Below are positions 28,381 through 59,314 of a stretch of 64,000 nt of DNA, one piece after another. Within the stretch, counting starts at the first letter, position 1, and every line of letters begins with the position of its first letter. The stretch comes from Escherichia phage BEU50, in sequence record OM632671.1. One strand, 5' to 3'. The position numbers were made by a program, and so were the translations under genes. The notes beneath the pieces were generated by a model, which ran no database searches, was not told the DNA's origin, and saw only the letters and a program-made list of their open reading frames with translations.

Positions 28381-28412
28381 GTTTACATGCTGATAGGACT
28401 ATGTTATAGTAG
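28381..28412 (+). promoter_or_regulatory. early promoter (GTTTAC -35, TATAGT -10) inside a 10-bp inverted repeat (PeSL family A)
   Basis: GTTTAC at 28381-28386; IR gataggacta / tagtcctatc flanks the -10. Confidence 0.6.
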
Positions 28413-28447
28413 TCCTATCAAAACAAATGAGTAAATGGAGAAATAAA

Positions 28448-28633
28448 ATGAAACGCGCTGAACTGATTCGTAATGTTGCTGTAGTAATTGCTTCAATGGC
28501 TTTTAGTTTTTCGATGTTTGTAGGATTCATTTGTGGACTACTGACAACAACAGAAAATTCTATCTCATTGGTAGTAGCATTTCTAATCGGCTTAATCGCT
28601 ATCGTTATGGATAAAATTGCAAAAGGTGAGTAA
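28448..28633 (+). CDS. small membrane protein (two predicted TM helices)
   Basis: ATG after SD ggag; hydrophobic stretches. Confidence 0.55.
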   Translation: MKRAELIRNVAVVIASMAFSFSMFVGFICGLLTTTENSISLVVAFLIGLIAIVMDKIAKGE

Positions 28634-28634
28634 A

Positions 28635-28997
28635 ATGAAATATCACGTATATGCGGATTTTGAAGCAAATCCTTCTAAAGACCCTGATTGTCGTTTGATA
28701 CGCAGACCATTTGATTCAGCAGCTCAAGCATGGGCTTGGATTAAAACTTGTACTCCTTCTTACACTTTCTTTGAAGTGGTAGACGATAACGGTGTTCTGC
28801 ATCCAGAACCTACAGAAACTATTAATTTCCTTCTGTTTGCTGGTTACGACTGTTATCCTCTTGGCGGTATTGATGATCTTGTTGCTACAGGAAAAACTGT
28901 TGAAGCTCTTCGCGAAATTTATAAAAACGCGGAAGAAAATTTTGACTGGTATCATATTGTTGATGCTCATACCTTTGAAATGGTGGAACATTCATGA
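28635..28997 (+). CDS. hypothetical protein
   Basis: ORF with SD aaggtgag; tightly packed early-gene arrangement. Confidence 0.55.
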   Translation: MKYHVYADFEANPSKDPDCRLIRRPFDSAAQAWAWIKTCTPSYTFFEVVDDNGVLHPEPTETINFLLFAGYDCYPLGGIDDLVATGKTVEALREIYKNAEENFDWYHIVDAHTFEMVEHS

Positions 28998-29284
28998 TTC
29001 TTTATGCTAAAGTATCGTCCATTGAGAACGGATATGAAAGCGACCAACGAGCAGCTAAAGCGTTAGTTGATGACTATGGTATTTTGACTAATTTTGAAGT
29101 TGAAAAGGTTTACATCGACCGTTCGTCTTCACAGGTTAAATTACTCTGTGAAGACGATAAATTTAACACAGTTAACTTTGATTTCTTTATTGAAACAGAA
29201 AAAGGCCCTCTTGAATATGATATTTTCAAGAATCCTTTGAAATTACGTTGCATTGAATATAATTACATTAATATGGTACGGTGA
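28994..29284 (+). CDS. hypothetical protein
   Basis: ORF overlapping upstream stop (ATGA coupling). Confidence 0.55.
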   Translation: MILYAKVSSIENGYESDQRAAKALVDDYGILTNFEVEKVYIDRSSSQVKLLCEDDKFNTVNFDFFIETEKGPLEYDIFKNPLKLRCIEYNYINMVR

Positions 29285-29288
29285 GTAA

Positions 29289-29804
29289 ATGAATATTTGT
29301 TTAGGCAGTACAATTCCTAAGGGTTACGTAATTGATGTCACTACTTGGGAAAATGACGGCGACAACTATAAAACCAAAACATTATTTGGTGTGGAAGAGC
29401 ATGAGCTCCAACAGTTTAAATATCTCTTGAAGAAATTTAAGAGTCGTCATTCCAGCACTAAAGCTGAACGTTACTGTGGTAATACACCATTCAGTGATTG
29501 CTCGCTTTTAATCTATGAATACTTGGTTGAAGGGCTGTTCTCAGACCAGCTTTATCCAGAATTCATTAAAAAGGTCTTTGATATTGAAGTCGACCTTGGT
29601 AATAAATCTGAAGAAGACGAATCGCGTGTATTCGACCTGTTCCATGAGAATGGATATTTGGTATCAGAAGGTCTCATTGATATTCTTGGTCATGCTTCTG
29701 AATATTATGATTATGATTTCTTGCGTGTAGTTGAATGTGTTGAATTTGCTTATATTGAAGAAGAAATCGTTTTGCCAACTGTTAAAATGATTGATTTGCT
29801 TTAA
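29289..29804 (+). CDS. hypothetical acidic protein
   Basis: 171 aa ORF. Confidence 0.55.
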   Translation: MNICLGSTIPKGYVIDVTTWENDGDNYKTKTLFGVEEHELQQFKYLLKKFKSRHSSTKAERYCGNTPFSDCSLLIYEYLVEGLFSDQLYPEFIKKVFDIEVDLGNKSEEDESRVFDLFHENGYLVSEGLIDILGHASEYYDYDFLRVVECVEFAYIEEEIVLPTVKMIDLL

Positions 29805-29883
29805 GAATTATGTGTTATTATTAATTCGTACCCTCTATTACCAAAGGTGCTCTAAAGTGCCTTTCATAATAGAAAGTTATTTA

Positions 29884-29957
29884 GGCCCTGTAGCTCAATG
29901 GTTAGCAGCAGTCCCCTCATAAGGGAAAGGTTACCAGTTCGAATCTGGTCTGGGTCA
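29884..29957 (+). tRNA. tRNA with anticodon CAU (Met, or Ile if lysidine-modified)
   Basis: Manually folded cloverleaf: acceptor GGCCCTG / CTGGGTC, anticodon loop CTCATAA, T-arm ACCAG-TTCGAAT-CTGGT; D-stem imperfect. Confidence 0.7.
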
Positions 29958-29963
29958 TATATT

Positions 29964-30040
29964 CGAGGCATAGCTCAATTGTATGGAGCAACGGACTTCT
30001 AATCCGTAGGTTGAAGGTTAGAATCCTTCTGTCTCGACCA
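29964..30040 (+). tRNA. tRNA-Arg (anticodon UCU), CCA encoded
   Basis: Acceptor CGAGGCA / TGTCTCG, anticodon arm ACGGA-CTTCTAA-TCCGT, T-arm GAAGG-TTAGAAT-CCTTC, 3' ACCA; 6 nt after the previous tRNA. Confidence 0.85.
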
Positions 30041-30058
30041 ACTTTAAGTGAGGAAAAT

Positions 30059-30403: not shown

Positions 30404-30715
30404 GAAGCCGGGTCGCTACCGGTAAGTCGTCGGACTGATGTTCCCTGAGTAAGGACTGGTCTTAATAAATCTTTACGATTTGTTAATATCCCCTTACATC
30501 ACAGCAGAAACGGCGCACAGAATTATCGATTCGAGGAAATATCTTTGCCGTAAGCCGAGTAGCGTTTTTGACGGAACGTTCGGATATGGTCGAGATATGG
30601 CCTTTTAAAAATATTGAGTAGCGTCAACTGCTTAATAACCGGGTTCGAATCCCGGCGTTTCGTACAAACACTTGCCTTAGCAGGTGGAAACCCCGACAAG
30701 GTTGCCGCAAGGCTT
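30404..30715 (+). ncRNA. non-coding region with tRNA-like T-arm; possible stable small RNA(s) analogous to T4 tRNA-cluster species
   Basis: About 310 nt with no convincing ORF; ACCGGG-TTCGAAT-CCCGG T-arm-like element near 30640-30660; ends at a rho-independent terminator. Confidence 0.3.
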
Positions 30716-30745
30716 AGCCCCTTCCGAAAGGTTGGGGCTTTTTGG
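30716..30745 (+). terminator. rho-independent terminator (repeated element, copy 1)
   Basis: agcccc-ttcc-gaaa-gg-ttggggct hairpin followed by TTTTTGG. Confidence 0.65.
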
Positions 30746-30788
30746 CATAATAATAAATAGATAAGTTAATTAACTTAGGAAAAGCAAC

Positions 30789-31253
30789 ATGAAATCATAC
30801 GCTGAATTTTTGACTGAACAATCTAGTTCAGATGTAAAAGCCGCTGCGATTGCAGCAATTCAAGCAGGTAAATATTCTTACAAAGACGCCTCTGATGAAG
30901 AACGTTTCCGTTTTATTAGAGATTTTAAAGCCGAAGGTTTTACTAATGCTAATACTGTTAGCCGAGTTTTTAAAAGCCTAGCTGCATCAGGTGAATTGTT
31001 CCAGAAAGCTACAGGTAAAGCACCTGCGCCAAAAGCGGACCCTAAAGCAGCTCAAGAAAAAAATATCGCCAAAGGAATTATTTCTAAGTATGAAGCAATT
31101 CTTAAAGAGCTTTTAGTAATCAAAACAGAAGGACAGAAACTGGCACGAGCACATAGCTTCAAAGATAATCCTCACGCTCATAGCCTTGAGTATGTTGAAG
31201 ATATCCAAAAACTTATTAAAGACCGTATCTGGTCTGCTAAACAAATTAAATAA
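30789..31253 (+). CDS. internal-protein-like protein with N-terminal capsid-targeting sequence
   Basis: 154 aa; begins MKSYAEFLTE (CTS with L-x-E); flanked by terminator copies 1 and 2. Confidence 0.6.
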   Translation: MKSYAEFLTEQSSSDVKAAAIAAIQAGKYSYKDASDEERFRFIRDFKAEGFTNANTVSRVFKSLAASGELFQKATGKAPAPKADPKAAQEKNIAKGIISKYEAILKELLVIKTEGQKLARAHSFKDNPHAHSLEYVEDIQKLIKDRIWSAKQIK

Positions 31254-31258
31254 TAGAA

Positions 31259-31290
31259 TGCCCCTTCCTTATGGTTGGGGCTTTTTGGCA
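31259..31290 (+). terminator. rho-independent terminator (repeated element, copy 2, loop variant)
   Basis: gcccc-ttcc-ttat-gg-ttggggc plus T-run; same stem as copy 1. Confidence 0.65.
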
Positions 31291-31319
31291 TCTAGGGCAT
31301 AAAAATATTTCATAAAGAT

Positions 31320-31350
31320 GTTTACTTCTTCTAAGGACATGATACTATAG
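31320..31350 (+). promoter_or_regulatory. early promoter (GTTTAC, 17 nt, TACTAT), PeSL family B
   Basis: GTTTAC 31320-31325, TACTAT 31343-31348; downstream SD agaggag. Confidence 0.6.
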
Positions 31351-31376
31351 ACTTATCAACCACAGAGGAGAATATT

Positions 31377-31682
31377 ATGAGTCTTTACACTGAACTGAAT
31401 AAAAAATCTGAAGAATCTGCTGAAACTATTTTTAAAAACGTGCAAAAGCGTATTTTAGAAAAGATGTATAACACTGCAGCTAAAGGTGAAAAATCTTGCC
31501 GGTTCCCGATGAGGTGTTCTTCCGATTTATGCGCAAATACTATTGAATGGCTGGAAAGTGAAGGTCTTACGGTAGAGAAAAACCCGGCGATTTCTATTGA
31601 CAGTGAATCATATATTAGTATTTCTTGGGATAAACCACGTATGAATGAAGGACACTACAAGTTGTTAAGTTGGAAAAATTAA
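31377..31682 (+). CDS. hypothetical protein
   Basis: 101 aa ORF downstream of an early promoter. Confidence 0.55.
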   Translation: MSLYTELNKKSEESAETIFKNVQKRILEKMYNTAAKGEKSCRFPMRCSSDLCANTIEWLESEGLTVEKNPAISIDSESYISISWDKPRMNEGHYKLLSWKN

Positions 31683-31689
31683 AAATAAT

Positions 31690-31722
31690 GATGTACAAGC
31701 ACCAAGGATGGTGATACTATAG
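31690..31722 (+). promoter_or_regulatory. early promoter, PeSL family C (ccaaggatgg core)
   Basis: atgtacaagcaccaaggatggtgaTACTAT; related to the promoters at 48061, 49117 and 50137. Confidence 0.5.
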
Positions 31723-31750
31723 ACTTATCAACTACAGAGGAGTAAACAAA

Positions 31751-31915
31751 ATGACTACTTTAATTATTTGGTTCGATGAAAATGAAGAAACATACTGTGT
31801 GAATATTGGTGAAAGTCCAATGCCTGAATTTGAATCCTCAGATAAAAACTCTGTTGTATCTTGGGCTGAAGGTTATAAAGCAGCTAAAGGTGACGTTGAA
31901 ATAATTTACATCTAA
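31751..31915 (+). CDS. hypothetical small protein (54 aa)
   Basis: Manually translated ORF MTTLIIWFDENEETY...; SD gaggag; not in the track (<60 aa). Confidence 0.45.
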   Translation: MTTLIIWFDENEETYCVNIGESPMPEFESSDKNSVVSWAEGYKAAKGDVEIIYI

Positions 31916-31961
31916 GTAAGTTTATGTTATAGTAGTCCTATCAAATCAAGAGGAAAACAAA

Positions 31962-32189
31962 ATGGCTAAAGTTAGTATTGATGTCGTTGATTATGAATAC
32001 ACCGAAGAAGTTATTCGCAACCGCCACCCTGAAGTTCGTATCGATTCAGTACAAGATTCCAAGTTCTGGACAACTGAGCTTAATCTGAGCGGCCCTTATG
32101 AAGCTGTTAAGAAGTTCATGGTTGAAGAATACTGCGAAGGCATGCACCCCGAAGACGCCAAGTTTTATGTCAATTTGATTAAAAAATAA
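31962..32189 (+). CDS. hypothetical protein
   Basis: 75 aa ORF after SD agaggaaa. Confidence 0.55.
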   Translation: MAKVSIDVVDYEYTEEVIRNRHPEVRIDSVQDSKFWTTELNLSGPYEAVKKFMVEEYCEGMHPEDAKFYVNLIKK

Positions 32190-32220
32190 TTTACAAACTC
32201 TTGAGAGCAGAGTATAATGC
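32189..32220 (+). promoter_or_regulatory. early promoter with IR around the -10 (PeSL family D)
   Basis: ATTTAC ... gagagca-gagTATAATgctctc; about 50-nt element repeated at 58353-58405. Confidence 0.55.
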
Positions 32221-32259
32221 TCTCGTTGGATAATAAACCACCAATTGAAAGGTAATAAT

Positions 32260-32853
32260 ATGAACACACTGAAGAAACTTGTTGAATTCATCCGCACTAA
32301 ACTGGGTACTGCTATGGCTAAAAATCTGACTGTCGAAGAACAGTATAACGCAGCTGCAGATAAGTTGATTACCCAAATCAAAGAACTAAAAACGGCTTCT
32401 GTTAAATCTATTAATGAAGAAAAACGTATTCGCGAACTTGTTAATGAAAAGAACAAGCAAGCCGCTTCTAAGGAACGTGAAATTCGTAAGCTCCTTGCTG
32501 AAGGACAAGATGTTACTATGCATGCTAAGCTTGGTCTTCTGTATCGTCGAACTGCCGAACAACTTAATACAAAGGCTGACGGGTATGCCGCTATGCGAAT
32601 TGAAATTGCTCGTAAGGTGGTTGAACTTGACGATGCTCGTCAGAACCTGGCAATCAAACTCGAATACATTCGTGAAACTCGAGCAGCCAATGCCCTTGGT
32701 ATCTCTACGGCCGATGATGTAATTGAAATAGCTGCACTGACTAAGGTTGATATCGAAGACACTCTGACTCGTGTTGAAACGTTCAATGGCACTCCAGCCG
32801 GCGTCGAAACCACTTCTGCTGATGTACAAGAATATATTAACTCTTTGAAATAA
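32260..32853 (+). CDS. hypothetical coiled-coil protein
   Basis: 197 aa from ATG after SD aaggtaa; predicted long alpha-helical/coiled-coil sequence. Confidence 0.55.
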
Positions 32854-34557: not shown

Positions 34558-34591
34558 GTAATAAATACCTCCTATAAACGTGGGAGGTATT

Positions 34592-35080: not shown

Positions 35081-35358
35081 AAACATATAGTGAATTTTTA
35101 TCAGAATCTATTCTTAACGAAGCTACTGACACATTTGCAACTAAGCTAGGTGCAGCTTTGGTTGAAGCTGAAAGTCTATTAGCACGTATTTCTGAACTTG
35201 CTAGTAAGATAGATACTCGCAAATTTGAACGTACCAGCGATATCGCTAAGCTTGAAGCTTTGTTACGTATGTGCGATAAACCGGAAGAAATCGCTAAGAA
35301 CGGCTCGTTAATGAAACAACGTCTTGAAAAATATATTTCAGGCGCTTCAGAAAAATAG
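35077..35358 (+). CDS. internal-protein-like protein with capsid-targeting sequence
   Basis: 93 aa; begins [10 protein letters not shown]; ATGA overlap with e stop; sits between e and denV where T4 carries ipIII/ipII. Confidence 0.6.
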
Positions 35359-35359
35359 T

Positions 35360-35390
35360 GTTTACTTCCTCCAAGGACTTTGATACTATA
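35360..35390 (+). promoter_or_regulatory. early promoter (GTTTAC, 18 nt, TACTAT), PeSL family B, with IR cctccaag / cttggagg
   Basis: GTTTAC 35360-35365; right IR arm contains the denV SD ggagg. Confidence 0.6.
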
Positions 35391-35416
35391 CATTCATCAA
35401 CTACTTGGAGGAAATT

Positions 35417-35830
35417 ATGACTCGTATCAATTTAACACTTGTTTCTGAACTGACTGACCAACATCTTATGGCTGAGTATCGTGAATTACCACGCGTATTT
35501 GGTGCAGTCCGTAAACATGTTCAAAACGGTAAACGTGTAAAGGATTTTAAAATCTCTCCAACATTTATCTTAGGCACAGGTCACGTAACATTCTTTTACG
35601 ACAAACTCGAATTTTTACGTTTACGTCAAATCGAGCTAATCGCTGAATGTTTGAAACGTGGTTTCAAAATCAAGGACACGACAGTCCAGGATATTTCCGA
35701 CATCCCTGCCGAATTTCGTAATAATTATGTCCCGTCCGAAGCGTCCATTGCGATAAGTCAAGCACGCTTAGATGAAAAAATTGCTCAACGTCCGACTTGG
35801 TACAAATACTATGGTAAATCAATTTACTAA
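35417..35830 (+). CDS. denV: endonuclease V (pyrimidine dimer DNA glycosylase)
   Basis: [35 protein letters not shown]... near-identical to recalled T4 DenV. Confidence 0.95.
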
Positions 35831-35836
35831 GGAAAA

Positions 35837-36097
35837 ATGAAAATGTATCAAGAATTTATCATTGAAGCAGATGCCAAAGGTCCTAAATTTAAAGTTAAAG
35901 CTTTCATTGGTGATGCGGAAGACTTTGGCTCATTAAAACGTAATGGGTATTCTTTCTTAGGTGGCGATGGTAAAGAAATCAACACCTATGCAAAACGTAG
36001 TGAAATTGCTTATGTTGTAGCAAGTCCTAAAGTAGATGTTGACGATATTGGATATGATTTTAACAACTTCGGAATTATTTCTGGCGGTAAAGCTTAA
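35837..36097 (+). CDS. internal-protein-like protein with capsid-targeting sequence
   Basis: 86 aa; begins MKMYQEFIIE. Confidence 0.55.
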   Translation: MKMYQEFIIEADAKGPKFKVKAFIGDAEDFGSLKRNGYSFLGGDGKEINTYAKRSEIAYVVASPKVDVDDIGYDFNNFGIISGGKA

Positions 36098-36100
36098 ATT

Positions 36101-36131
36101 GTTTACGCTTAAGTATTAATATGGTATAATT
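36101..36131 (+). promoter_or_regulatory. early promoter (GTTTAC, 18 nt, extended -10 TGgTATAAT)
   Basis: GTTTAC 36101-36106, TATAAT 36125-36130. Confidence 0.65.
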
Positions 36132-36160
36132 ACTCTATCAAAACAAACAAGGAAACAAAA

Positions 36161-36475
36161 ATGAAAACGTATAAAGAATTTATTGCAGAATCCGCCAACC
36201 AACGCGTTGAAGGTGGTTATATTTGGATTGAACAAGTTGAGCCACCGAGCCGCACTTCTACAGGTAAATGGAAAATTACTGTTGACGGTCCTGGTGGTAA
36301 ACGTAGGACTCTTAAAGAAATTAATGGGTACTATGAAGAAGCTCTTTCGGATGCAGGAACTTACATGATGCAAATCATGATTAAAAACCCTGAAAACCGT
36401 TTTGCAGCTAAAGTCTTCCGTCGTATTGGTAATAAACTTTATGATGCATACTCTAAAAACTTCCCTAAAGAATAA
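36161..36475 (+). CDS. internal-protein-like protein with capsid-targeting sequence
   Basis: 104 aa; begins MKTYKEFIAE. Confidence 0.6.
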   Translation: MKTYKEFIAESANQRVEGGYIWIEQVEPPSRTSTGKWKITVDGPGGKRRTLKEINGYYEEALSDAGTYMMQIMIKNPENRFAAKVFRRIGNKLYDAYSKNFPKE

Positions 36476-38697: not shown

Positions 38698-38912
38698 TGG
38701 CTTCTACTATTACTGGGTTATTGGACTTCCAAGAAAAGGTCAACAAAATTTGTAGTGAATACTTAAAGTATCTTGAAGAAGACCTTGAAGATTGTAAGGA
38801 AGAAGGCGAAGAAGACTATGCTGACCAGCGTCGCCGCCAAATCGAAGAGATGAGGCATTTCGCCAATATGGTATCTAAAGAATCTTGGGCTTTAACTCCG
38901 TTTTATCAATAA
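38697..38912 (+). CDS. hypothetical acidic protein
   Basis: 71 aa ORF. Confidence 0.5.
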   Translation: MASTITGLLDFQEKVNKICSEYLKYLEEDLEDCKEEGEEDYADQRRRQIEEMRHFANMVSKESWALTPFYQ

Positions 38913-38916
38913 AGTA

Positions 38917-38946
38917 GTTTACTTCTCCTCTAGTTGTGTTACTATA
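38917..38946 (+). promoter_or_regulatory. early promoter (GTTTAC, 17 nt, TACTAT), PeSL family B, with 12-bp perfect IR whose right arm carries the regB SD
   Basis: IR ctcctctagttg ... caactagaggag flanks the -10. Confidence 0.65.
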
Positions 38947-38973
38947 GACCTGTCAACTAGAGGAGAAATCAAA

Positions 38974-39432
38974 ATGACTATCAATTCGGAAGTTTTTATC
39001 CGCCGTAATAAACTCCGTCGAATCTTTGAAACGGAGTTCCGCAAAATAAATGCCAGTATAAAAGACGCTGCAAAGTCTCTTGGACTACCAGGCTTTCATA
39101 TCAAGTATTCTCAACATCTCTTAGATCGTGCTATCCAGAGAGAAATAGATGAGAATTACGTTTTTGAATTATTTCGTAAAGTAAAAAATCATGTTAAAGA
39201 AGTTGCAGAATTTTTATCAATGCCGGCACGTCCAGATGTTGATGAAGATTTTGTCGAAGGTGTCGAATATCGCCCGGGCCGTTTAGAAATAACTGATGGA
39301 AATCTTTGGTTGGGACTTACAGTTTGTCGCGAAAATCCGGCATTCAAAATGAAGACTCTTCAATGCAGAATGGCTATTATTAACAGTAAACGACTACCAG
39401 GAAAAGCTTCTAAAGCAGTGATTAAAATCTAG
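38974..39432 (+). CDS. regB: endoribonuclease RegB
   Basis: MTINSEVFIRRNKLRR...HIKYSQHLLDRAIQREIDENYVFELF...QCRMAIINSKRLPGKASKAVIK matches recalled T4 RegB. Confidence 0.88.
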   Translation: MTINSEVFIRRNKLRRIFETEFRKINASIKDAAKSLGLPGFHIKYSQHLLDRAIQREIDENYVFELFRKVKNHVKEVAEFLSMPARPDVDEDFVEGVEYRPGRLEITDGNLWLGLTVCRENPAFKMKTLQCRMAIINSKRLPGKASKAVIKI

Positions 39433-42109: not shown

Positions 42110-42115
42110 TTTACT

Positions 42116-42148
42116 AGCCCCTTCCGAAAGGTTGGGGCTTTTTGGCAT
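42116..42148 (+). terminator. rho-independent terminator (repeated element, copy 3; identical to copy 1)
   Basis: tagccccttccgaaaggttggggctttttggcat identical to 30715-30748. Confidence 0.65.
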
Positions 42149-42154
42149 CTATCA

Positions 42155-42184
42155 GTTTACTTCTCCTCAGGTTGTGTTATAGTA
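42155..42184 (+). promoter_or_regulatory. early promoter (GTTTAC, 17 nt, TATAGT), PeSL family B
   Basis: GTTTAC 42155-42160; IR tctcctc ... gaggaga with the right arm as SD. Confidence 0.6.
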
Positions 42185-42210
42185 AACCTTACTTACTAGA
42201 GGAGAACGTT

Positions 42211-45948: not shown

Positions 45949-45952
45949 ATGT

Positions 45953-45973: not shown

Positions 45974-45999
45974 GGGGGTTAAAATATTTTTAAAAAGTA

Positions 46000-46029
46000 G
46001 TGTACATGCTTTTAGGATATGTTATTATA
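46000..46029 (+). promoter_or_regulatory. early promoter (GTGTAC -35, TATTAT -10), PeSL family A variant
   Basis: Downstream 5' UTR aaacgaaatgagtaaattggag resembles the 28420 copy. Confidence 0.5.
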
Positions 46030-46066
46030 GACCTATCGAAACGAAATGAGTAAATTGGAGAATAAA

Positions 46067-47185: not shown

Positions 47186-47473
47186 ATGGATTTTATGCAA
47201 AAAATTAAAGCCGCAGTCGAACTCTATGCTCATCGTATGGTTAGTTCTACAATGCAATATAGCGAGGAGGTTCGCCAGGACTCTTCCTTGAAAGGAAAAA
47301 CTAGAGCCTTAATTACCTTAGACCGTCTACAAAAGAATGCCATAGAGATGCTCCAGTACGACAAGGGTGTATATAAGAAAGAACAGGAAGAGAAACTTAA
47401 ATCTGAAAAATTACAAAAAATCCCGAAGTCTGTTTGGTTCAGTGGAAAAAATACCGAAAAAAGTTTCTTTTAG
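47186..47473 (+). CDS. hypothetical protein
   Basis: 95 aa from ATG after SD agagga. Confidence 0.5.
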   Translation: MDFMQKIKAAVELYAHRMVSSTMQYSEEVRQDSSLKGKTRALITLDRLQKNAIEMLQYDKGVYKKEQEEKLKSEKLQKIPKSVWFSGKNTEKSFF

Positions 47474-47475
47474 TT

Positions 47476-47505
47476 GTTTACAAGGTCTATGGTTATGTTA
47501 TTATA
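47476..47505 (+). promoter_or_regulatory. early promoter (GTTTAC, 17 nt, TATTAT) with IR aggtctat / atagacct
   Basis: GTTTAC 47476-47481. Confidence 0.6.
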
Positions 47506-47531
47506 GACCTATCAACTACTGGAGGTAAAAC

Positions 47532-48059
47532 ATGAACGCTAAAGATATTTTCAACCTGGTAAATTATAACGACGGTAAATTTAAATCTGAAGCACAAAGC
47601 AAGTTCTTTAATGACGTTGCTTATGGTAACGAGATTACCGTGGACGGAGGTCAGATTTTCAAATCTCGCTGGAATTGGATTGTTATCATCGATTCAGTTG
47701 GAATTGTGGAAGTCTACAAAAACACTAACAAAAAACGTACATTATTCTGGTCTCGTGAAACTAACGAGCAGTACAAAAAGGATAAAGCATCTCGTTTATC
47801 CAAAGTAACCCAGGAAGATATCGAGTTTATCAAGAAAGATATCGAGATGTACGAAAATTTAATCGCTGAAGACCAGGCAGTACTCGATAAGTTTGATGAA
47901 ATTAAAGCTTCTCGTGAAATCCCTGACTTCATGAAAGAAACAGTAAACGAACGATACGCTCTCACTTCAGAACGTATTGCAAACTATACAAAACAGAAAG
48001 CAGAACGTATTAGTACTCTTCGGAAATTTGAAGAACGTTTAAAGACGGTTCACGCATAA
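47532..48059 (+). CDS. hypothetical protein
   Basis: 175 aa ORF after SD ggagg. Confidence 0.55.
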   Translation: MNAKDIFNLVNYNDGKFKSEAQSKFFNDVAYGNEITVDGGQIFKSRWNWIVIIDSVGIVEVYKNTNKKRTLFWSRETNEQYKKDKASRLSKVTQEDIEFIKKDIEMYENLIAEDQAVLDKFDEIKASREIPDFMKETVNERYALTSERIANYTKQKAERISTLRKFEERLKTVHA

Positions 48060-48060
48060 A

Positions 48061-48086
48061 CGCTTTACCCAAGGACGGGTTATAAT
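48061..48086 (+). promoter_or_regulatory. promoter-like element, degenerate PeSL family C (ccaaggacgg, TATAAT)
   Basis: gctttacccaaggacgggttataat upstream of the ORF at 48122; -35/-10 spacing is irregular. Confidence 0.35.
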
Positions 48087-48121
48087 GGTTTTGAGTTCCA
48101 ATTCAATCTGAGGAAATAGTT

Positions 48122-49117
48122 ATGAGCATTACATCTGATGCGGTAAAACATGAAATTAACGGTTTATGTGCTTCACAGATTAAAGTGTGGTTTAAAGACC
48201 ATAATGATCGCAGAGCACTTAATTATGAGCAAATTGCTATCCAAGTTCATCAATTACTGACTAGTAAATTTGATTTTCATATGCCGTCTGAAATCTATAC
48301 TAATCTGCCGCGAGCGCTTATTAAAGCGTGTAAAGGTTACGGAAAATCAATGGCTGATGGAATCTTCAGCGCGCTGAATAAACTTAACGTTCTGTCGATG
48401 ATTAACTCTAACAACATCCTGCGTAATCTAGGACGTACTGATTTGTTCGGTCGTGAACAGTGTAAAATGCCTTTGAAATGGATTGTTGCTCATCTTAACG
48501 AGAACCAAACACGTTTTATGGCCGTATCAGCACGCTTACAAATGGGTCTAGATCGTCAGATGAACTTTAAAACTCATCCATGTTATTCAGGTTCAACAGA
48601 CTTTTATAAATGTGAGCTTCAAAAGGTTGGTGGCAAAACTGTCTTAGTAGTTCGTGTAACGTTTGAAGGACGACGTCAAGGATATTTTAACCTAATCGGC
48701 TCTGGTCTTAAACATTGTGGATTTATCGACGAAGTTGATATCAAGCGAGACGGCACTGGATATCGTATTGGATATGTTTGTACTCTTAAAGAAGAGATTT
48801 CAGGACCAGCTCCAGGACTAAAAGATGTTAGATATAAAGATGAGCTCGTTGAAGAAATAAAAGAAGTTGAATATGATATCAACCAAGAAGATGCTCTTAA
48901 AGACCTTATTGATGAACTAAACCAAGACGTTATTCCGGTTCAGAAATTTGAATCAAAACATGCTGAGCAAATCAAATACTTTGAAGCTTTGATTAACGAA
49001 CTTAATGTAACTATTCAACAGACCGACGATGAAATCTCACGATTAGCAGGCTTAAACGGTAAAAATAAAACAGAACGAGCTAATCTTATTCAAGTAGTAA
49101 AACTTCTTAAGGAATGA
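48122..49117 (+). CDS. hypothetical protein with C-terminal coiled coil (tandem cassette, 1 of 3)
   Basis: 331 aa; no recognised domain. Confidence 0.6.
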   Translation: MSITSDAVKHEINGLCASQIKVWFKDHNDRRALNYEQIAIQVHQLLTSKFDFHMPSEIYTNLPRALIKACKGYGKSMADGIFSALNKLNVLSMINSNNILRNLGRTDLFGREQCKMPLKWIVAHLNENQTRFMAVSARLQMGLDRQMNFKTHPCYSGSTDFYKCELQKVGGKTVLVVRVTFEGRRQGYFNLIGSGLKHCGFIDEVDIKRDGTGYRIGYVCTLKEEISGPAPGLKDVRYKDELVEEIKEVEYDINQEDALKDLIDELNQDVIPVQKFESKHAEQIKYFEALINELNVTIQQTDDEISRLAGLNGKNKTERANLIQVVKLLKE

Positions 49118-49147
49118 TGTACAACCAAGGATGGTTGGAGTATAATA
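49117..49147 (+). promoter_or_regulatory. early promoter, PeSL family C
   Basis: atgtacaaccaaggatggttggagTATAAT; 27 nt identical to the 50137 copy. Confidence 0.6.
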
Positions 49148-49172
49148 AATTTTTCAACATGAGGAATATAAA

Positions 49173-50132
49173 ATGGCTTTTATTACACGTAGAGAACTTA
49201 TCAAAGAATTTACCTCGAACGCATATACTCCAGGACCTAATCCTATCCGTATGCCTGTAAAGACTCCTGAAGAGATTGAGGAAATCTGTTCATATTATGG
49301 GATTACTTCTCGTAAGTTTACTCAATTTGAATGCGTTACTAACACACCCGTTAAAGAGTTCATTAAAAATGGTGAGTTCAGCCGTTTATTAGCCAAACAG
49401 AAACTTCGTAATTTTTGTATTGGTGGTGAAGGACAATATTTCGCTAAGCAGTTCCGGAATAACCTTAACAATCTGATGGCCATTGCTTCTCGTATTCGTC
49501 CTCAAGCAATTAACATGAAACATTTGAAATATACTTACGATAAGTTAGAAATCATGGTTATCGGTGAGAACGAGTTCACTCTTACGTATAAACCTAAGAA
49601 TGATAACGTTGCTCGTGTATTCCACCAAGCGTTGGAAGTTTTAGGTGATAATATCCACCAGATTAAAGCAATTTATTCTCGTGAGCTTAATATTATCGAC
49701 CCTATCAAGAATAAGGGCCATATCGCTATCCAGGCTCGTGTATCTATTGGTAAAAAGGTTCCTGCGCCATGGTGGCACAAAGACTCTGAATACTATCAAA
49801 ATCTTAAAAAGGAAAATGCATTGTTTGAAGCATCGCTTACTGGGACCCCAATTGAACAGGCCGAAGTCCTAAGTGCTTATTCTACTTCGGGTAAATCAAT
49901 GTTTAAAGGTTTGCCAAATGTGTGCAAACTGTCTGCAGTAAAACTAAATGTTTCTAATGACCTTCTTCCGGCCGAAGATTACCGTTACAATCAAATCAAG
50001 GCCACTATGGACCAACTGTCTGTTGAACTTGACAAAGCACAAGCTAAGCTTCGTGATGCTCAAAGTGTTGTAACGAATCTCCAGTTGCAGTATTCTAAAC
50101 TTTTTAACGCAATGAATGCATTAAAATCATAA
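49173..50132 (+). CDS. hypothetical protein with C-terminal coiled coil (tandem cassette, 2 of 3)
   Basis: 319 aa; no recognised domain. Confidence 0.6.
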   Translation: MAFITRRELIKEFTSNAYTPGPNPIRMPVKTPEEIEEICSYYGITSRKFTQFECVTNTPVKEFIKNGEFSRLLAKQKLRNFCIGGEGQYFAKQFRNNLNNLMAIASRIRPQAINMKHLKYTYDKLEIMVIGENEFTLTYKPKNDNVARVFHQALEVLGDNIHQIKAIYSRELNIIDPIKNKGHIAIQARVSIGKKVPAPWWHKDSEYYQNLKKENALFEASLTGTPIEQAEVLSAYSTSGKSMFKGLPNVCKLSAVKLNVSNDLLPAEDYRYNQIKATMDQLSVELDKAQAKLRDAQSVVTNLQLQYSKLFNAMNALKS

Positions 50133-50136
50133 AATA

Positions 50137-50167
50137 GTTTACAACCAAGGATGGTTGGAGTATAATG
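50137..50167 (+). promoter_or_regulatory. early promoter, PeSL family C
   Basis: GTTTACaaccaaggatggttggagTATAAT. Confidence 0.65.
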
Positions 50168-50194
50168 AATCTATCTTAACGAGAGGAAAATATT

Positions 50195-51145
50195 ATGACA
50201 CGTTCACATTACATTGAATACTTTGCAGGTCTTATCGCTAACGTTCATGCCCAACGTGCTTCTGGTTCATTAGGATTTGATGTTCCACACCGAGATGTAG
50301 TAAGTGGTATTCTTCGAGATTTTGGTACATACATAGGCCAAGAAAATCATATCTGTAAAGATACTCAAAATGCGTATTCTCATTCGTTAGGGACGTTGCT
50401 TCAATGGTTCAAACGTTCTCGTTTATTATCTTCTACTGTAGCTCGCGATAACATTAAAAACTTTATGAAGCCGAGCTTTATTAAATCTGTGACATCTAAA
50501 ACCGATTTGGTTGAATTCACTATTGTTAATGATGTTAAAAAGACTCATTTGGCTGATTGGTTAACTACCATTCCTGAAACTAAATTTGCTGATAAATTTG
50601 CTTGTGAATTCAATAACCAAGTGAATATGCTTTTTAAACATTCTCGTAAATTATTCACAGGCGGCGATGATCGTACAAATAAAGTTCATGCTAAAGATTG
50701 GGTTACTGCAGTGTTCAAACCAACCGGTAATGGTACCGCATCATTATCAATTGATATTCAGGTTCCTTATTATTACTCACGTAATCTCGGCACCATGAAA
50801 GCTGAAGAAATTAAGAAGCACAATAAAACCATTCGTTCGCTGTCTTATAAACTTCGCATGATGTTAAGAATCATGGACGTGGTAGAAATGTATGATGAAA
50901 CCGAAGATAATGGTTCAATGTTATACAGTTCTCGCATTCAAATTAAGTTGAAGAACCCTAACGAGTATAAGCCTAAGCCTATTAAAGAGCCTAAAGCAGA
51001 AAAAGTTGATAACTTAAGAGAAGAACGCGAATATCTCAAATCTCGTCTGAAAGAAGTCGAAGCCCAGATTGCAGAACAAACTAAATCATTAAAAGCTCTG
51101 AATGCAAAAGCGGATGGTTTACGAAATGCCATTGAGGTTTTATAA
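50195..51145 (+). CDS. hypothetical protein with C-terminal coiled coil (tandem cassette, 3 of 3)
   Basis: 316 aa; no recognised domain. Confidence 0.6.
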   Translation: MTRSHYIEYFAGLIANVHAQRASGSLGFDVPHRDVVSGILRDFGTYIGQENHICKDTQNAYSHSLGTLLQWFKRSRLLSSTVARDNIKNFMKPSFIKSVTSKTDLVEFTIVNDVKKTHLADWLTTIPETKFADKFACEFNNQVNMLFKHSRKLFTGGDDRTNKVHAKDWVTAVFKPTGNGTASLSIDIQVPYYYSRNLGTMKAEEIKKHNKTIRSLSYKLRMMLRIMDVVEMYDETEDNGSMLYSSRIQIKLKNPNEYKPKPIKEPKAEKVDNLREEREYLKSRLKEVEAQIAEQTKSLKALNAKADGLRNAIEVL

Positions 51146-52451: not shown

Positions 52452-52579
52452 ACCGTGGTATTCGGCTCGATGGGAGACAGTCGAGCCAGACGTCGAAACA
52501 GTTTACAACGACGAAGAAACGTGTTATGATGAACCTTCAATAAATGAATTAATTAATATGGAAATGGGAAGAGATTATT

Positions 52580-52790: not shown

Positions 52791-53262
52791 ATGTTATTAT
52801 CAGGCAAAATATAAAGAAGAAAAACAAAAATTTTATGATGCACAGAATGGTAAGTGTCCTATTTGCCACCGTGAATTAGACCCTGATGTTCAAGGTAACC
52901 ATCTTGACCACGACCACGAATTAAACGGGCCAAAAGCCGGTAGAGTTCGTGGATTACTCTGTAATCTGTGCAACGCAGCAGAAGGTCAAATGAAGCATAA
53001 GTTCAACCGTTCCGGTCTTAAAGGACGTGATGTTGACTACCTCGAATGGCTTGAAGCTCTTCTTGCTTATTTGAAACAAGATTATTCTTATAATAATATC
53101 CATCCTAATTTTGTTCCAGACAAAACTAAAGAGTTCTCAAGACTAGGTAAAGAGGAAATGATGGCTGAGATGCTTCAAAGAGGATTTGAATATAATGAAT
53201 CTGACACCAAAACACAGTTAATAGCTTCATTTAAGAAGCAACTTAGAAAGAGTTTAAAATGA
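52791..53262 (+). pseudogene. 49: endonuclease VII (gene 49) interrupted by a frameshift at codon 7; internal-start ORF 52990-53262 intact
   Basis: ATG 52791 gives MLLSGKI then stop; the +1 frame from 52810 encodes YKEEKQKFYDAQNGKCPICHRE...CNLCNAAEGQMKHKFNRSGLKG..., matching recalled T4 EndoVII; apparent 2-nt loss in aaaatat(at)aaag. Confidence 0.7.
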
Positions 53263-56838: not shown

Positions 56839-56923
56839 ATCTCATTTCTAATATAATCCATTGGAATCTTCACTTCACTATCTCCTTGTGCCCCTCTCAA
56901 ATCGAAAATATTTTCATAAAACA

Positions 56924-56953
56924 GTTTACATCCTCAATAGACGTGTTAAGATT
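56924..56953 (+). promoter_or_regulatory. early promoter (GTTTAC, 17 nt, TAAGAT)
   Basis: GTTTAC 56924-56929. Confidence 0.45.
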
Positions 56954-56980
56954 AAACCATCTACTATAGAGGAAAATAAA

Positions 56981-57163
56981 ATGACAATTGAAGATAAAGA
57001 AATTAAGGTTGACCAGTACTATTCTGTCAACGGTAATGCAGTACAGATAACCAGAGTTTCAAGCCTGGATGTTTGGTACCGTTTAATCAAATATCCAGAA
57101 ATTGGCGAAATGCTTTGTGACCGTGGTATCTTCTGTTCAATTGCGAAGGAAATTAAGCCATGA
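56981..57163 (+). CDS. hypothetical small protein
   Basis: 60 aa from ATG after SD agagga. Confidence 0.5.
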   Translation: MTIEDKEIKVDQYYSVNGNAVQITRVSSLDVWYRLIKYPEIGEMLCDRGIFCSIAKEIKP

Positions 57164-57408: not shown

Positions 57409-57415
57409 GGTACTT

Positions 57416-57709
57416 ATGGGTAAAACATATCGTCGTAAAGATTTGAAAGTTCGCGATTACGACTATTTTGGTAAGCGTAAAGCTCCTGATGGTGTTAGCC
57501 ACAAAGACATGGTTGAAAACATTTTCCGCTCAGATAAATGGAAACGTATGAAAGGCGTTGATTCTGAAGTCAAGAATGAAATGAATCGACAACTCCGCAA
57601 AGAAGTTCGTAAGTTGAAAAAAGATGTTTACAGTAAAGAAGAGTATGATTATAATACTTCTCATACTGAAGCCAAACGTAAAGCTAACGAATGTTATCGT
57701 TACAGTTGA
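57416..57709 (+). CDS. hypothetical basic protein
   Basis: ATG after SD gagg; lysine/arginine rich. Confidence 0.5.
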   Translation: MGKTYRRKDLKVRDYDYFGKRKAPDGVSHKDMVENIFRSDKWKRMKGVDSEVKNEMNRQLRKEVRKLKKDVYSKEEYDYNTSHTEAKRKANECYRYS

Positions 57710-57848
57710 GGAAATTATGAATATCAAACGCTGGCTTTTTAAGCAAGGGTTCTACACTTTAAATGCTACTCCAAAAGGCGATACAACTAAGTGGTCAGTA
57801 ACTGACTGGATTAAATTTATTGATGAAAATGGCAATTGGGAAATTTAA

Positions 57849-58049
57849 ATGAATCCTGAATCTATGTTATCTCAAAAACTTCGTGAAGAACGTGCCGAAT
57901 TCTTTGCCAATATGAAACTCAACGGTGTTGAGGATGAAGACTTCTTACGCTGGTTCTGGATTTACAAATACAAAGAATGCCAGCACGCTGTACTACTGAC
58001 TTGTGCAGTTATGTACGAAGGCTGGAAAGGCGCTAAAAAGTTCGGTTAA
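57849..58049 (+). CDS. hypothetical protein
   Basis: 66 aa ORF. Confidence 0.45.
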   Translation: MNPESMLSQKLREERAEFFANMKLNGVEDEDFLRWFWIYKYKECQHAVLLTCAVMYEGWKGAKKFG

Positions 58050-58113
58050 TAATGTACAACGATAGGAAGACATGTTATTATCTTTCCTATCGTCTTAAAA
58101 TGAGGAAAATATC

Positions 58114-58353
58114 GTGGCCCAAGAATTAGATTTTATCAAATTCAAAAAACACCTCGACGTTAAAATTGGGGATTCAATTGTTAGGATTGAGTATGACATT
58201 TTAACAGATGCTATTACTGTTAGTTGTGATGGAAATAGTTTCAGCTTCGATACAACCGAAAACAAGTACCCAATCTATAAAGGCATCTTTGATATGGGTG
58301 TTGATATTACTCCACGTGATACAAATTACTTACTTTTCATGCTTAAAAAATAG
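58114..58353 (+). CDS. hypothetical protein
   Basis: GTG start after SD gaggaaa; 79 aa. Confidence 0.45.
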   Translation: MAQELDFIKFKKHLDVKIGDSIVRIEYDILTDAITVSCDGNSFSFDTTENKYPIYKGIFDMGVDITPRDTNYLLFMLKK

Positions 58354-58383
58354 TATACAAACTCTTGAGAGATGAGTATAATT
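58353..58383 (+). promoter_or_regulatory. early promoter with IR around the -10 (PeSL family D, second copy)
   Basis: GTATAC ... gagaga-tgagTATAATtctctc; about 50 nt near-identical to 32191-32240. Confidence 0.55.
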
Positions 58384-58419
58384 CTCTCGTTGGATAATAA
58401 AATAACCGAGGAAAATAAT

Positions 58420-58752
58420 ATGTCTACTAAAATCAAAAACGTAGTTAATTCTTTCGCTTTCGATAAAGTTGTTGCTCTTCTGGAATCCGGCAATATTGTT
58501 ACTCCTCAAGTTCTTGACGCGTGGGAATTCCGTCTTTATGAAATCATGCAAAAACACGACCAGAAAATTGGACGTAATTCTATTCGTGAAATTCTAGTAC
58601 AATATATTCTTTCTGAATTTGACGTTGCTGCATTTGGTGTTGAATCTAAAGCTTATCAGAAACATGAAATCTCTGAAAAGACTATCCGTCGTATGAAAAA
58701 TCAACGTAAGAAAAAATTCGTTGACCTGAAAATTGTTAAGGCGGTAAAATGA
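58420..58752 (+). CDS. hypothetical protein
   Basis: 111 aa from ATG after SD gaggaaa. Confidence 0.55.
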   Translation: MSTKIKNVVNSFAFDKVVALLESGNIVTPQVLDAWEFRLYEIMQKHDQKIGRNSIREILVQYILSEFDVAAFGVESKAYQKHEISEKTIRRMKNQRKKKFVDLKIVKAVK

Positions 58753-58976
58753 GCGTATTAACAGAAACTTTGATTAATGACCTGCGTCTAGCTGGTTACG
58801 AAGTTGGTACAAATAGCCTAGGTCTTCCTCAGATTGAAGGGCCTGGATTTATCCTAGAATATGAATTCAAACAATGGTGGTTATATGCTACGGTTGACGA
58901 TGCGTTGAATATTGATTTTGTTGACCAATTTGATTCGTTGGATGCTGCTCTTGAAGCAGCAAAGGAACTAGAATGA
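58749..58976 (+). CDS. hypothetical acidic protein
   Basis: 75 aa ORF, ATGA-coupled. Confidence 0.5.
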   Translation: MSVLTETLINDLRLAGYEVGTNSLGLPQIEGPGFILEYEFKQWWLYATVDDALNIDFVDQFDSLDAALEAAKELE

Positions 58977-59242
58977 AATTAACTCGAATCAGTATAACTG
59001 AAGAAAAGCTGGGCGAATTTTATGTTGACGAATACATGAAAGTCACGTATTTTCCATTCGTTAAAGGTGTTGGTTTTTGGGAAACTCATGTATCTCAATT
59101 AAACGAAGGCGACTATAACGAAACACATGAGAACTTTTTAGATTTTCTTTATAATGCCGGTCTTACTGAGCTTTATATCGATATCCATGAGTTCAAACGT
59201 TTAATGGAAAAAGTGTTTCAGGCTTATTGTTTGCTCCGATAG
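58973..59242 (+). CDS. hypothetical protein
   Basis: 89 aa ORF, ATGA-coupled. Confidence 0.5.
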   Translation: MKLTRISITEEKLGEFYVDEYMKVTYFPFVKGVGFWETHVSQLNEGDYNETHENFLDFLYNAGLTELYIDIHEFKRLMEKVFQAYCLLR

Positions 59243-59314
59243 TATCTCGTGCTTTAAGATAGGTCTCTAAATATTATGATATAATAGACCTATGAATTGA
59301 GCCAAGAGGTACTT

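Follow-up and report, generated by a model that had tools for sequence, protein, structure and literature searches.

The early region of Escherichia phage BEU50 (record OM632671.1, of which a stretch of 64,000 nucleotides, the window, was analyzed here) contains several families of short repeated elements that combine a promoter with an inverted repeat. In all likelihood these repeats are early promoter cassettes, of the sigma-70-dependent T4 type, of an RB69-like phage; most have a private inverted repeat, and a subset would use it to gate the Shine-Dalgarno sequence (SD) of the gene downstream. An initial annotation of this DNA had recognized them as early-promoter/stem-loop modules of the type known as promoter-early-stem-loops (PeSLs). 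That identification was right, as is evident from matches to a T4 promoter matrix, from orthology to the early promoters (Pe) of RB69, and from conservation of the stem-loops as structures.

Promoter identity and module families

A T4-specific position matrix was built from 13 clear promoter sites, and the level of matches expected by chance was taken from Markov simulations. It matches 23 sites on the plus strand and two on the minus strand, compared with about 1.2 expected per strand, and 22 of the 23 plus-strand sites fall between 28027 and 58354. A generic sigma-70 consensus gave no separation of real from shuffled sequence in this AT-rich DNA (70 against 66 matches and 76 against 70), and the GenBank and RefSeq records of T4 contain no promoter features. 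For RB69, Nolan et al. 2006 (PMC1524935, Additional file 3) predicted 58 early promoters, and 19 of the window modules correspond to these one-to-one. Module 31321 sits in a cassette that RB69 does not have, and the regB module, 38918, is the orthologue of the T4 regB early promoter. Homology and statistics together establish what these elements are.

Nineteen modules fit the T4-type early promoter, with the consensus aAAta.tTTacaa...TGtTAt.ATa.accTaTCaa. Their common plan begins with an A-rich upstream (UP) region at about -42, followed by a -35 box (G)TTTAC(A/T), a spacer of 16-17 nucleotides (nt), and a -10 box TGn-TAYWAT; the downstream half consists of a conserved CCTATC some 7 nt beyond the -10, the A of which is the predicted transcription start, a leader of 20-35 nt, the SD, and the ATG. 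Early modules are co-oriented with the early genes and lie directly upstream of them, each ending in an SD and ATG at its 3' end. For purposes of annotation, the module sites would define the early transcription units of RB69-like therapeutic coliphages.

The initial annotation had sorted the repeats into four families, and all 15 of the coordinates that it gave carry the sequences assigned to them, with an offset of 1-3 nt. Family A, at 28381 and 42604, joins GTTTAC to inverted repeats of 12-13 bp (TGATAGGACTAT/GTAGTCCTATCA and TTGGTAGGACTAT/GTAGTCCTACCAA); at 31920 it is partial, as had been claimed, with the right arm alone retained, and 46000 and 47476 are variants of it, the latter with an 11-bp repeat of its own. 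Family B (31320, 35360, 38917, and 42155) has TTCT(T/C)C.. right after GTTTAC and pairs with the SD over 7, 10, 14, and 8 bp, respectively. The family C core, CCAAGGAYGG, is present in four copies, all on the plus strand, where 0.17 would be expected, and the two members of family D (32176-32237 and 58340-58401) share 90% identity across 62 nt.

Some of this picture has had to be redrawn. Clustering of the region from spacer to start reproduces groups A (28382, 42605, and 31905), C (49118 and 50138), and D (32190 and 58354) and a looser B-type group, but all of these are subgroups of one class rather than separate families. The element at 31690, listed as plain family C, does have a family C spacer, but in the same clustering (as 31692) this is joined to the -10 and leader of 31321, which are of family B type, making it a mosaic. 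The element at 48061, previously counted among the early promoters, has a gap of merely 11 nt between TTTACC and TATAAT and is a MotA-box middle promoter. Six modules have been added to the list, at 28027, 36102, 52502, 56925, 57627, and 58053; that at 56925 is a fifth SD-pairing (family B-like) member.

Hairpin geometry

About 15 of the 21 modules have a structurally conserved stem-loop inside or beside the promoter, and in about 15 of 21 the 5' arm of the inverted repeat lies in the -35/-10 spacer. The distance from the end of the right arm to the ATG is bimodal, at either 4-12 or 15-38 nt, and three types of hairpin can be recognized. In type 1 (stems of 7-13 bp), the 3' arm directly follows the -10 and stops at about +1, which leaves 18-35 nt to the ATG. 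Families A and D have this arrangement, in which the SD is uninvolved. The type 1 modules are listed below with their RB69 counterparts and, where available, the free energy (dG) and z-score of the fold.

28007..28092, plus strand: early promoter module of an ipI-like gene (RB69 Pe77187); -35 at 28027, -10 at 28050-28055; arms AGGATGATGG 28035-28044 and CTATCATCCT 28052-28061 flank the -10; dG -14.4, z -2.2.
28362..28450, plus strand: family A module (RB69 Pe76459); -35 at 28382, -10 at 28405-28410; 12-bp repeat 28391-28402/28409-28420; dG -17.9, z -4.8.
32170..32262, plus strand: family D module (32190) with an e.6-like gene downstream (RB69 Pe72069); repeat around the -10, TGAGAGCA 32202-32209/TGCTCTCG 32218-32225; z -2.3.
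42585..42664, plus strand: family A module (42605; RB69 Pe57689); 13-bp repeat 42613-42625/42632-42644; dG -21.5, z -4.1.
47457..47534, plus strand: module (47477) of an nrdC.8-like gene (RB69 Pe53683); repeat AGGTCTATGGT 47483-47493/ATTATAGACCT 47500-47510.
58033..58116, plus strand: module with ATGTAC -35 at 58053 (RB69 Pe42816); repeat ACGATAGGAAG 58059-58069/TTTCCTATCGT 58083-58093.
58334..58420, plus strand: family D module (58354) with a 55.2-like gene downstream (RB69 Pe42515); repeat TGAGAGA 58366-58372/TCTCTCG 58383-58389.

In type 2 modules, the SD itself forms the 3' arm, the end of which is 4-8 nt upstream of the ATG; the stems are of 5-14 bp and the arms are 17-33 nt apart.

31301..31379, plus strand: weak family B module; -35 at 31321, -10 at 31343-31348; anti-SD TTCTTCT 31326-31332 pairs with AGGAGAA 31366-31372; dG -9.7, z +0.4.
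35341..35419, plus strand: family B module of denV (35361; RB69 Pe64934); anti-SD TTCCTCCAAG 35366-35375 pairs with CTTGGAGGAA 35404-35413; dG -17.8, z -3.8.
38898..38976, plus strand: family B module of regB (38918; RB69 Pe61376); anti-SD TTCTCCTCTAGTTG 38923-38936 pairs with CAACTAGAGGAGAA 38954-38967 over 14 bp, with the -10 and +1 in the loop; dG -21.6, z -3.2.
42136..42213, plus strand: family B module (42156; RB69 Pe58138); anti-SD TTCTCCTC 42161-42168 pairs with GAGGAGAA 42199-42206.
56905..56983, plus strand: type 2 module (56925; RB69 Pe43945); TCCTCAATAG pairs with CTATAGAGGA, with one A.A mismatch.

The strongest fold z-scores are thus those of 28382, 42605, 35361, and 38918. Type 3 is a hairpin of 4-6 bp entirely inside the spacer. 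Its members are 31692, 48064 (within the middle promoter at 48061), 49118, 50138, and 53171, of which the early ones are as follows.

31672..31753, plus strand: mosaic module (31692; RB69 Pe72567), identical to 31321 in its -10 and leader; family C hairpin CACCA 31700-31704/TGGTG 31709-31713 in the spacer.
49098..49175, plus strand: family C module (49118; RB69 Pe52042); spacer hairpin CAACCA 49122-49127/TGGTTG 49132-49137.
50118..50197, plus strand: family C module (50138; RB69 Pe51019); spacer hairpin CAACCA 50142-50147/TGGTTG 50152-50157.

A convincing hairpin was sought without success in five modules, namely 57627 and the following four.

31885..31964, plus strand: degenerate family A module (RB69 Pe72354); ATTTAC -35 at 31905; right arm TAGTCCTATC alone remains; z -0.6.
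36082..36163, plus strand: early promoter (36102) with an internal-protein gene downstream (RB69 Pe64193/Pm64182); no significant inverted repeat, z +0.1.
45981..46069, plus strand: variant A module with GTGTAC -35 at 46001 (RB69 Pe55296, with a twin in RB69, Pe55018); imperfect inverted repeat, z +1.3.
52482..52560, plus strand: early promoter-like site (52502) without an inverted repeat (RB69 Pe48639); z +0.9.

There is also a half module at 47144-47168, which has the AT-rich upstream part and GATGTACAA in common with 31674-31698 but is without a -10; the SD and ATG of an nrdC.9-like gene follow directly downstream, and 165-170 nt around it are missing in RB69 and in two of the IMG/VR loci (L006 and L021).

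Selection on pairing

Orthologous upstream regions were collected from regB- and nrdC-anchored IMG/VR loci (L005-L041) and from the annotated genomes of T4, RB69, a20, PTK, ST2, and DCP548. When each spacer was paired with its own downstream segment, the median duplex energy was -15.0 kcal/mol, compared with -7.6 when the segment was drawn from the module of another gene, and duplexes at -15 or lower made up 51% of cognate and 3.9% of non-cognate combinations (p = 4e-14, 91 distinct modules).

The helices themselves differ from lineage to lineage. That between the regB spacer and SD is kept in five lineages with differing sequences: TTCTCCTCTAGTTG/CAACTAGAGGAGAA, TTTTCCTCTTGACTG/CAGTTAAGAGGAGAA (with two G.U pairs), TTTCTCCTCTTTATG/CATAAAGAGGAGAAA, TCTCCTGTAAG/CTTACAGGAGA, and TTTCCTT/AAGGAGA. 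The spacer-SD helix of denV is likewise kept in five lineages by different helices. At 42605 and at the ipI module (28027), orthologues retain type 1 helices of unrelated sequence; the T4 counterpart of the former has GTTGACAAGATTA/TAATCTTGTCAAC and that in L012 has two G.U pairs, and the T4 counterpart of the latter has TGATGAGGTA/TACCTCATCA. The nrdC.8 promoter is of type 1 in the window and of type 2, with SD pairing, in T4 and a third lineage (L028-33); its orthologues, like those of regB and denV, retain a helix through compensatory changes. Because MAFFT did not bring 13 family B-type modules into structural register, their alignment was replaced by a subset of eight modules and by helix finding in each sequence; for the eight, RNAalifold returned 10 pairs, three of them with compensatory changes. 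In the pairing, selection is on structure rather than on sequence.

Within the helices, G.T oppositions number 14 (about 11 of them independent) and A.C oppositions three. This excess argues that the pairing acts in sense-strand RNA reading through from upstream and not in duplex DNA.

A predicted translational gate in type 2 modules

Because the module's own predicted start is downstream of the 5' arm, the hairpin would be formable only in read-through RNA. The initial annotation had proposed that read-through transcripts occlude the SD, which transcripts from the embedded promoter would leave free. This was examined by comparing the modeled probability that the SD is unpaired in read-through RNA with that in the module's own transcript.

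31321: 0.16 in read-through RNA, 0.57 in own transcript.
35361: 0.10 in read-through RNA, 0.60 in own transcript.
38918: 0.21 in read-through RNA, 0.69 in own transcript.
42156: 0.16 in read-through RNA, 0.57 in own transcript.
56925: 0.41 in read-through RNA, 0.72 in own transcript.

The proposal is upheld for family B and 56925, where the SD is modeled to open 1.8-5.8-fold, and fails for families A, C, and D; types 1 and 3 have ratios of 0.8-1.4, with the exception of 49118 (family C) at 2.3, which is ascribed to a different local helix.

The SDs of type 2 modules carry GGAG, the target of the endoribonuclease RegB, which is inhibited by secondary structure and cuts its own SD. A closed type 2 SD would therefore also be expected to resist RegB. 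We consider the chances to be about even that the early-promoter spacer acts as an anti-SD that closes the ribosome-binding site and GGAG of regB, denV, nrdC.8, and several open reading frames (ORFs) in every transcript other than the module's own. In such a scheme, read-through or middle-mode RNA would be translationally closed at the type 2 genes (regB, denV, and three ORFs) and RNA from the cassette's own early promoter would be open, so that protein synthesis would be confined to the period in which early promoters fire. The gate appears to be kept by compensatory change in at least five lineages and, at one and the same gene, to be replaceable by a type 1 hairpin.

Should the gate work as modeled, it would be a simple cis-acting means of confining a protein to the opening minutes of infection, independent of the shut-off of early promoters, which T4 reviews call unexplained. 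The gated proteins would be strictly "immediate-early only," and read-through RNA would gain a RegB-resistant, untranslated passage. A promoter whose own spacer silences read-through might also make a compact synthetic part.

Type 1 hairpins, by contrast in their geometry, have AT-rich stems followed by A-rich sequence and leave the SD alone. They would mark the end of the upstream cistron and, at a guess, may serve there as an attenuator, a pause site, or a 3' stabilizer.

Family C hairpins and middle promoters

The family C hairpin is found in the spacers of early as well as middle promoters, in the nrdC.x region and in T4-, RB69-, and other T-even lineages. The window copies are at 31700-31713, 48067-48080, 49122-49137, and 50142-50157, and there are many in the loci L001-L044. 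Its core, CC-AAGGA(U/C)-GG, is invariant, and its outer stem covaries (AACC/GGTT, CACC/GGTG, TACC/GGTA, AGCC/GGCT, ATCC/GGAT, and ACCC/GGGT). Paired cells amount to 87%, compared with 66% in shuffles (0 of 500 reach the observed value), and the covariation score is 0.51 compared with 0.12, with four pair types at two positions. Such conservation of the loop suggests a specific partner. This invariant-loop hairpin and the early-promoter gate are the parts of the system that merit experiment. A further hairpin of family C type, at 39561-39578, lies within an ORF.

Two type 3 sites are middle rather than early promoters. Both conform to the MotA-box pattern, (a/t)3TGCTTtA centered at -30 and 11-13 nt before TAnnnT.

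48053..48124, plus strand: middle promoter 48061, aaaCGCTTTA-N13-TATAAT (-10 at 48081-48086); family C hairpin ACCC 48067-48070/GGGT 48077-48080 in the spacer.
53160..53205, plus strand: middle promoter 53171, in gene 49 with nrdD downstream, GATGCTTCA-N13-TATAAT (-10 at 53191-53196); spacer hairpin TTCAAA/TTTGAA.

The first aligns base for base with the T4 middle promoter PnrdC.7, experimentally identified with a start at 53325 (PMC2988021, Table 1), and is its orthologue. The second aligns with the start of T4 PnrdD, which the same table prints as 6440 and which is taken here as 46440.

Gene-content change at the modules

The initial annotation had also suggested that the repeats are substrates for cassette shuffling. 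Comparison of the window with ten Mosigvirus genomes by chained blastn alignments reveals about 30 distinct indels or replacements in the region of 27.5-60 kb, and gene-content breakpoints do occur at the repeats: there is a breakpoint at 12 of 19 gene junctions with a module and at 17 of 52 without (Fisher p = 0.03, odds ratio 3.5). The part of the suggestion that stands is that indels are bounded by duplicated modules; the enrichment is modest and many indels are unrelated to it. Shuffling at modules is real, but it is neither the sole process nor a strongly dominant one.

In four events, the module forms a flanking direct repeat (46007-46071, 28058-28112, 58042-58390, and 28112..28379). At the first, with an overlap of 48-65 nt, a small ORF of RB69ORF102c type stands between twin modules in RB69, ST2, L006, and L021 and is missing in the window; module 46001 is a recombination scar, the module being duplicated around the extra ORF in relatives. 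At 28058-28112, RB69 has an additional internal protein (IP) gene. Locus L022 is without the ORF between modules 58053 and 58354, with breakpoints in both modules, and DCP548 has ipI exchanged precisely between modules 28027 and 28382. IP cassettes are further exchanged at the leader repeat that follows module 36102. This repeat of 26 nt at the start of IP genes (D5; AAAATGAAAAC.TATAAAGAATTTAT, encoding MKTYKEFI) is present at 28087-28112, 35834-35859, 36158-36183, and 36498-36523, and more weakly at 35074, and is the point at which IP gene cassettes are exchanged between relatives.

A second repeat, D7, is a GC-rich, terminator-like hairpin of 34 nt with a T run, the first and third copies of which are 100% identical.

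30715..30748, plus strand: D7 copy 1, lying downstream of the tRNA cluster; the RB69 replacement 30743..31365 has its left breakpoint here.
31258..31291, plus strand: D7 copy 2, immediately before promoter 31321; phage ST2 has a breakpoint at 31286.
42115..42148, plus strand: D7 copy 3, immediately before promoter 42156; the a20 replacement has its right breakpoint here.

D7 delimits three further events; replacements or insertions bounded by it are found in RB69, a20, ST2, and PTK, the last having an insertion of +594 nt flanked by a 29-nt repeat (42116-42144). Another GC-rich, T-run terminator, at 45951-45975, is just upstream of a module. Whether modules preceded by a true terminator have weaker hairpins was also considered; the pattern is mixed and the sample small.

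ORFs flanked by modules of the same family display no paralogy by BLASTP apart from the IP leaders, even though the modules are alike; an origin of families A, C, and D by tandem gene duplication was accordingly rejected, their cargo ORFs not being detectably similar. The near-identity of cassettes over 40-60 nt serves as portable homology, with the ORFs in between gained, lost, or swapped. The region offers clean natural examples of such exchange via promoter cassettes and terminator copies, alongside which homing endonucleases and other events act independently.

One rearrangement is internal to a module. In L021 (UViG_2974739009), in the orthologue of 58059-58093, the 12 nt between the 11-bp arms, including the -10, are exactly inverted (AGGAAG-ATAATAACATGA-CTTCCT, compared with AGGAAG-TCATGTTATTAT-CTTCCT in a20), which should disable the promoter.

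Alternative explanations

It is unlikely that the main role of the embedded hairpins, in all families including B, is to terminate or attenuate upstream transcripts. They would form in read-through RNA only, at the end of the upstream cistron, the G.U bias on the sense strand suits a role in RNA, and a stem-loop of RB49/phi1 has been shown to act in this way on lacZ (Arbiol et al. 2010, PMC2839356). The stems are nevertheless AT-rich, 5-14 bp long, and followed by A-rich sequence (CAAAAC...); not one has a T tail or was matched in the terminator scan, so that the sequence lends no support to a role as intrinsic terminator of the RB49/phi1 kind. Hairpins that do look like terminators, D7 and 45951-45975, are separate entities just upstream of some modules, and the 3' arm of family B is exactly the SD, co-varying with the 5' arm. 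Rather less probable is action of the repeats in DNA, as cruciforms or non-template hairpins that aid promoter opening or as hot spots for recombination or template switching. The loop inversion at 58053 in L021 is a DNA-level event that needs the arms, there are breakpoints inside modules, and the -10 is in the loop of type 1 hairpins; but a DNA role predicts equal numbers of G.T and A.C oppositions and not 14 and three, the wide separation of type 2 arms, one of them the SD, is sensible in RNA only, and sigma-70 requires duplex DNA at -12 and TGn.

Two further possibilities would deny the pairing any function of its own or assign it to a protein. If the modules were simply copied ancestral promoters, the complementarity could be a by-product of two motifs, the spacer AGGA and the CCTATC at +1 both being part of the module consensus, or of quasi-palindrome correction; several modules have no hairpin and some families are near-identical copies, as would then be expected. 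This seems very improbable and has largely been refuted: the helices exceed the 4-nt core and differ fully between lineages (GTTGACAAGATTA, TGATGAGGTA, CAGTATGGGA, and GGGCCAT), cognate arms out-pair non-cognate arms bearing the same motifs, and the covariation controls agree. Palindromes centered on or near the -10 might also be operators through which a dimeric phage protein turns off early promoters, a process described for T4 as not understood. The arms, however, vary by promoter and lineage in sequence, length, and center of symmetry, with pairing ability alone conserved, and the repressor-operator reading, scarcely credible on these grounds, was rejected.

The interpretation as early promoter cassettes, some with an SD gate, has its own difficulties. 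All module start sites in this phage are predicted, as are the translational effect and any terminator or stabilizer activity. The mean fold z-score is only -1.16 over 21 modules, and the five modules listed above have no convincing hairpin. The sequences in the cognate/non-cognate test are phylogenetically related, and, AGGA and CCTATC both being in the promoter consensus, some type 1 repeats could owe their 4-bp core to coincidence. With regard to shuffling, the breakpoint enrichment, besides being modest, is confounded with intergenic space, and homing-endonuclease insertions (43874-44645 and 55109-55711), a block at 33195, and several small events are unrelated to modules. Finally, SD pairing may already be described in the older T4 literature (Liebig & Ruger 1989; Miller 2003; Repoila 1994).

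Genome context

The window belongs to a Mosigvirus (RB69-like, T4-family) genome and is, between 28000 and 52000, 98.5-98.7% identical to Escherichia phage a20 by megablast; identity to T4 is 70-93%. Its map direction is the reverse of that of T4. Bases 1-27000 hold late baseplate and tail genes on the minus strand, and the early region occupies the plus strand from about 27.5 to 60 kb, in the order 57B, ipI, tRNAs, e.x, nudE, e, denV, IP genes, vs.x, regB, vs, tk, rI, mobD, nrdC.x, 49, nrdD, nrdG, 55.x, 55. An Rfam scan of 27.5-60 kb found two tRNAs and nothing else.

29884-29957 and 29964-30037: tRNA genes, named tRNA-Met and tRNA-Arg in relatives.

At this site (29884-30037), ST2 has a third tRNA and DCP548 an inserted ORF of 666 nt. 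Homing endonuclease ORFs resembling mobD (43883-44665) and mobC (55089-55721) are precisely missing from most Mosigvirus relatives. At 33195-33202, a block of 3.7-4.2 kb, containing e.3, e.4, about eight ORFs, and two more family A promoters, is missing in the window and in a20 and present in RB69, PTK, ST2, DCP548, and L006; the ORF 32903-33385 is probably a fusion, because the junction falls inside it. The record of ST2 (OM982647.1; L043) gives its taxonomy as Guernseyvirinae; Kagunavirus, but its sequence, a Mosigvirus-like genome of 171 kb, has 96.6% identity to the window, and the record is probably mislabeled.

Comparison with known systems

PeSLs were described in RB49/phi1 by Arbiol et al. 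2010 (PMC2839356), with stem-loops between the promoter boxes or overlapping the -10, and with mini-circles; one of these stem-loops lowers the expression of lacZ downstream of it, as a strong terminator would. Comeau et al. 2014 (PMC4122927) added PST/T4 and nt-1/KVP40, gave the consensus TTTACW-N17-TAYWAT, and included middle-promoter versions (PmSLs). The window modules resemble PeSLs in uniting an AT-rich upstream region, a strong early promoter, a stem-loop, an SD, and an ATG in one cassette of 60-90 nt, in their many copies before small ORFs of variable early regions, and in the indels and replacements that they bound. With those of RB49/phi1 they share stem-loops between the -35 and -10 or overlapping the -10, and with those of PST/T4 the promoter consensus, 48061 and 53171 being the counterpart of the PmSLs. 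The stems of the window are AT-rich, without a T tail, and not terminator-like, in contrast to the polyG/polyC stems of RB49/phi1; and whereas the stem-loops of PST/T4 are stated to be just upstream of the promoter, the hairpins of the window are embedded in it.

The RB69 orthologues of 19 modules had been predicted as promoters by Nolan et al. 2006, as coordinates and a logo only, without hairpins, families, or a role in recombination. The conserved promoter and leader elements on either side of T-even IP genes (Repoila et al. 1994, known here through PMC2839356 and PMC4122927) are termed AT-rich analogues by Arbiol et al. as they cite them; modules 28027 and 36102, which with D5 bracket IP genes that relatives swap or add exactly at these repeats, are similar to these, and the IP loci are just two of about twenty module sites in the window.

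For the gate, the closest parallel is with the T4 genes e, soc, 49, and I-TevI, whose hairpins sequester the translation initiation region (Uzan & Miller 2010, PMC3014915). As in those genes, the SD pairs with an upstream arm in the long RNA (among the window modules, in family B and at 56925 only), and an embedded promoter starting between the arms, at predicted positions in the window, would yield an open mRNA. The gene e hairpin is itself conserved in the window, at about 34553-34588 upstream of the lysozyme gene, where ATACCTCC...GGAGGTAT sequesters the SD and the loop has a late-promoter-like TATAAAC. The T4 hairpins embed a late promoter (TATAAATA, gp55), whereas the window modules embed an early one of sigma-70 type; because the embedded promoter is early, the effect would be the opposite, limiting translation to the first minutes, where the late-promoter switch delays it. 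The type 2 gate thus works, as modeled, like the e/soc/49/I-TevI family but is not a member of it. No description of SD pairing with an early promoter was found in the PeSL papers or the 2010 T4 reviews; the two PeSL papers (PMC2839356 and PMC4122927) do not discuss SD pairing or use the word "translation," and RB69-type phages were not analyzed in them. The class as such is already published as PeSLs, to which the RB69-type members and the predicted SD gate within an early promoter are additions.

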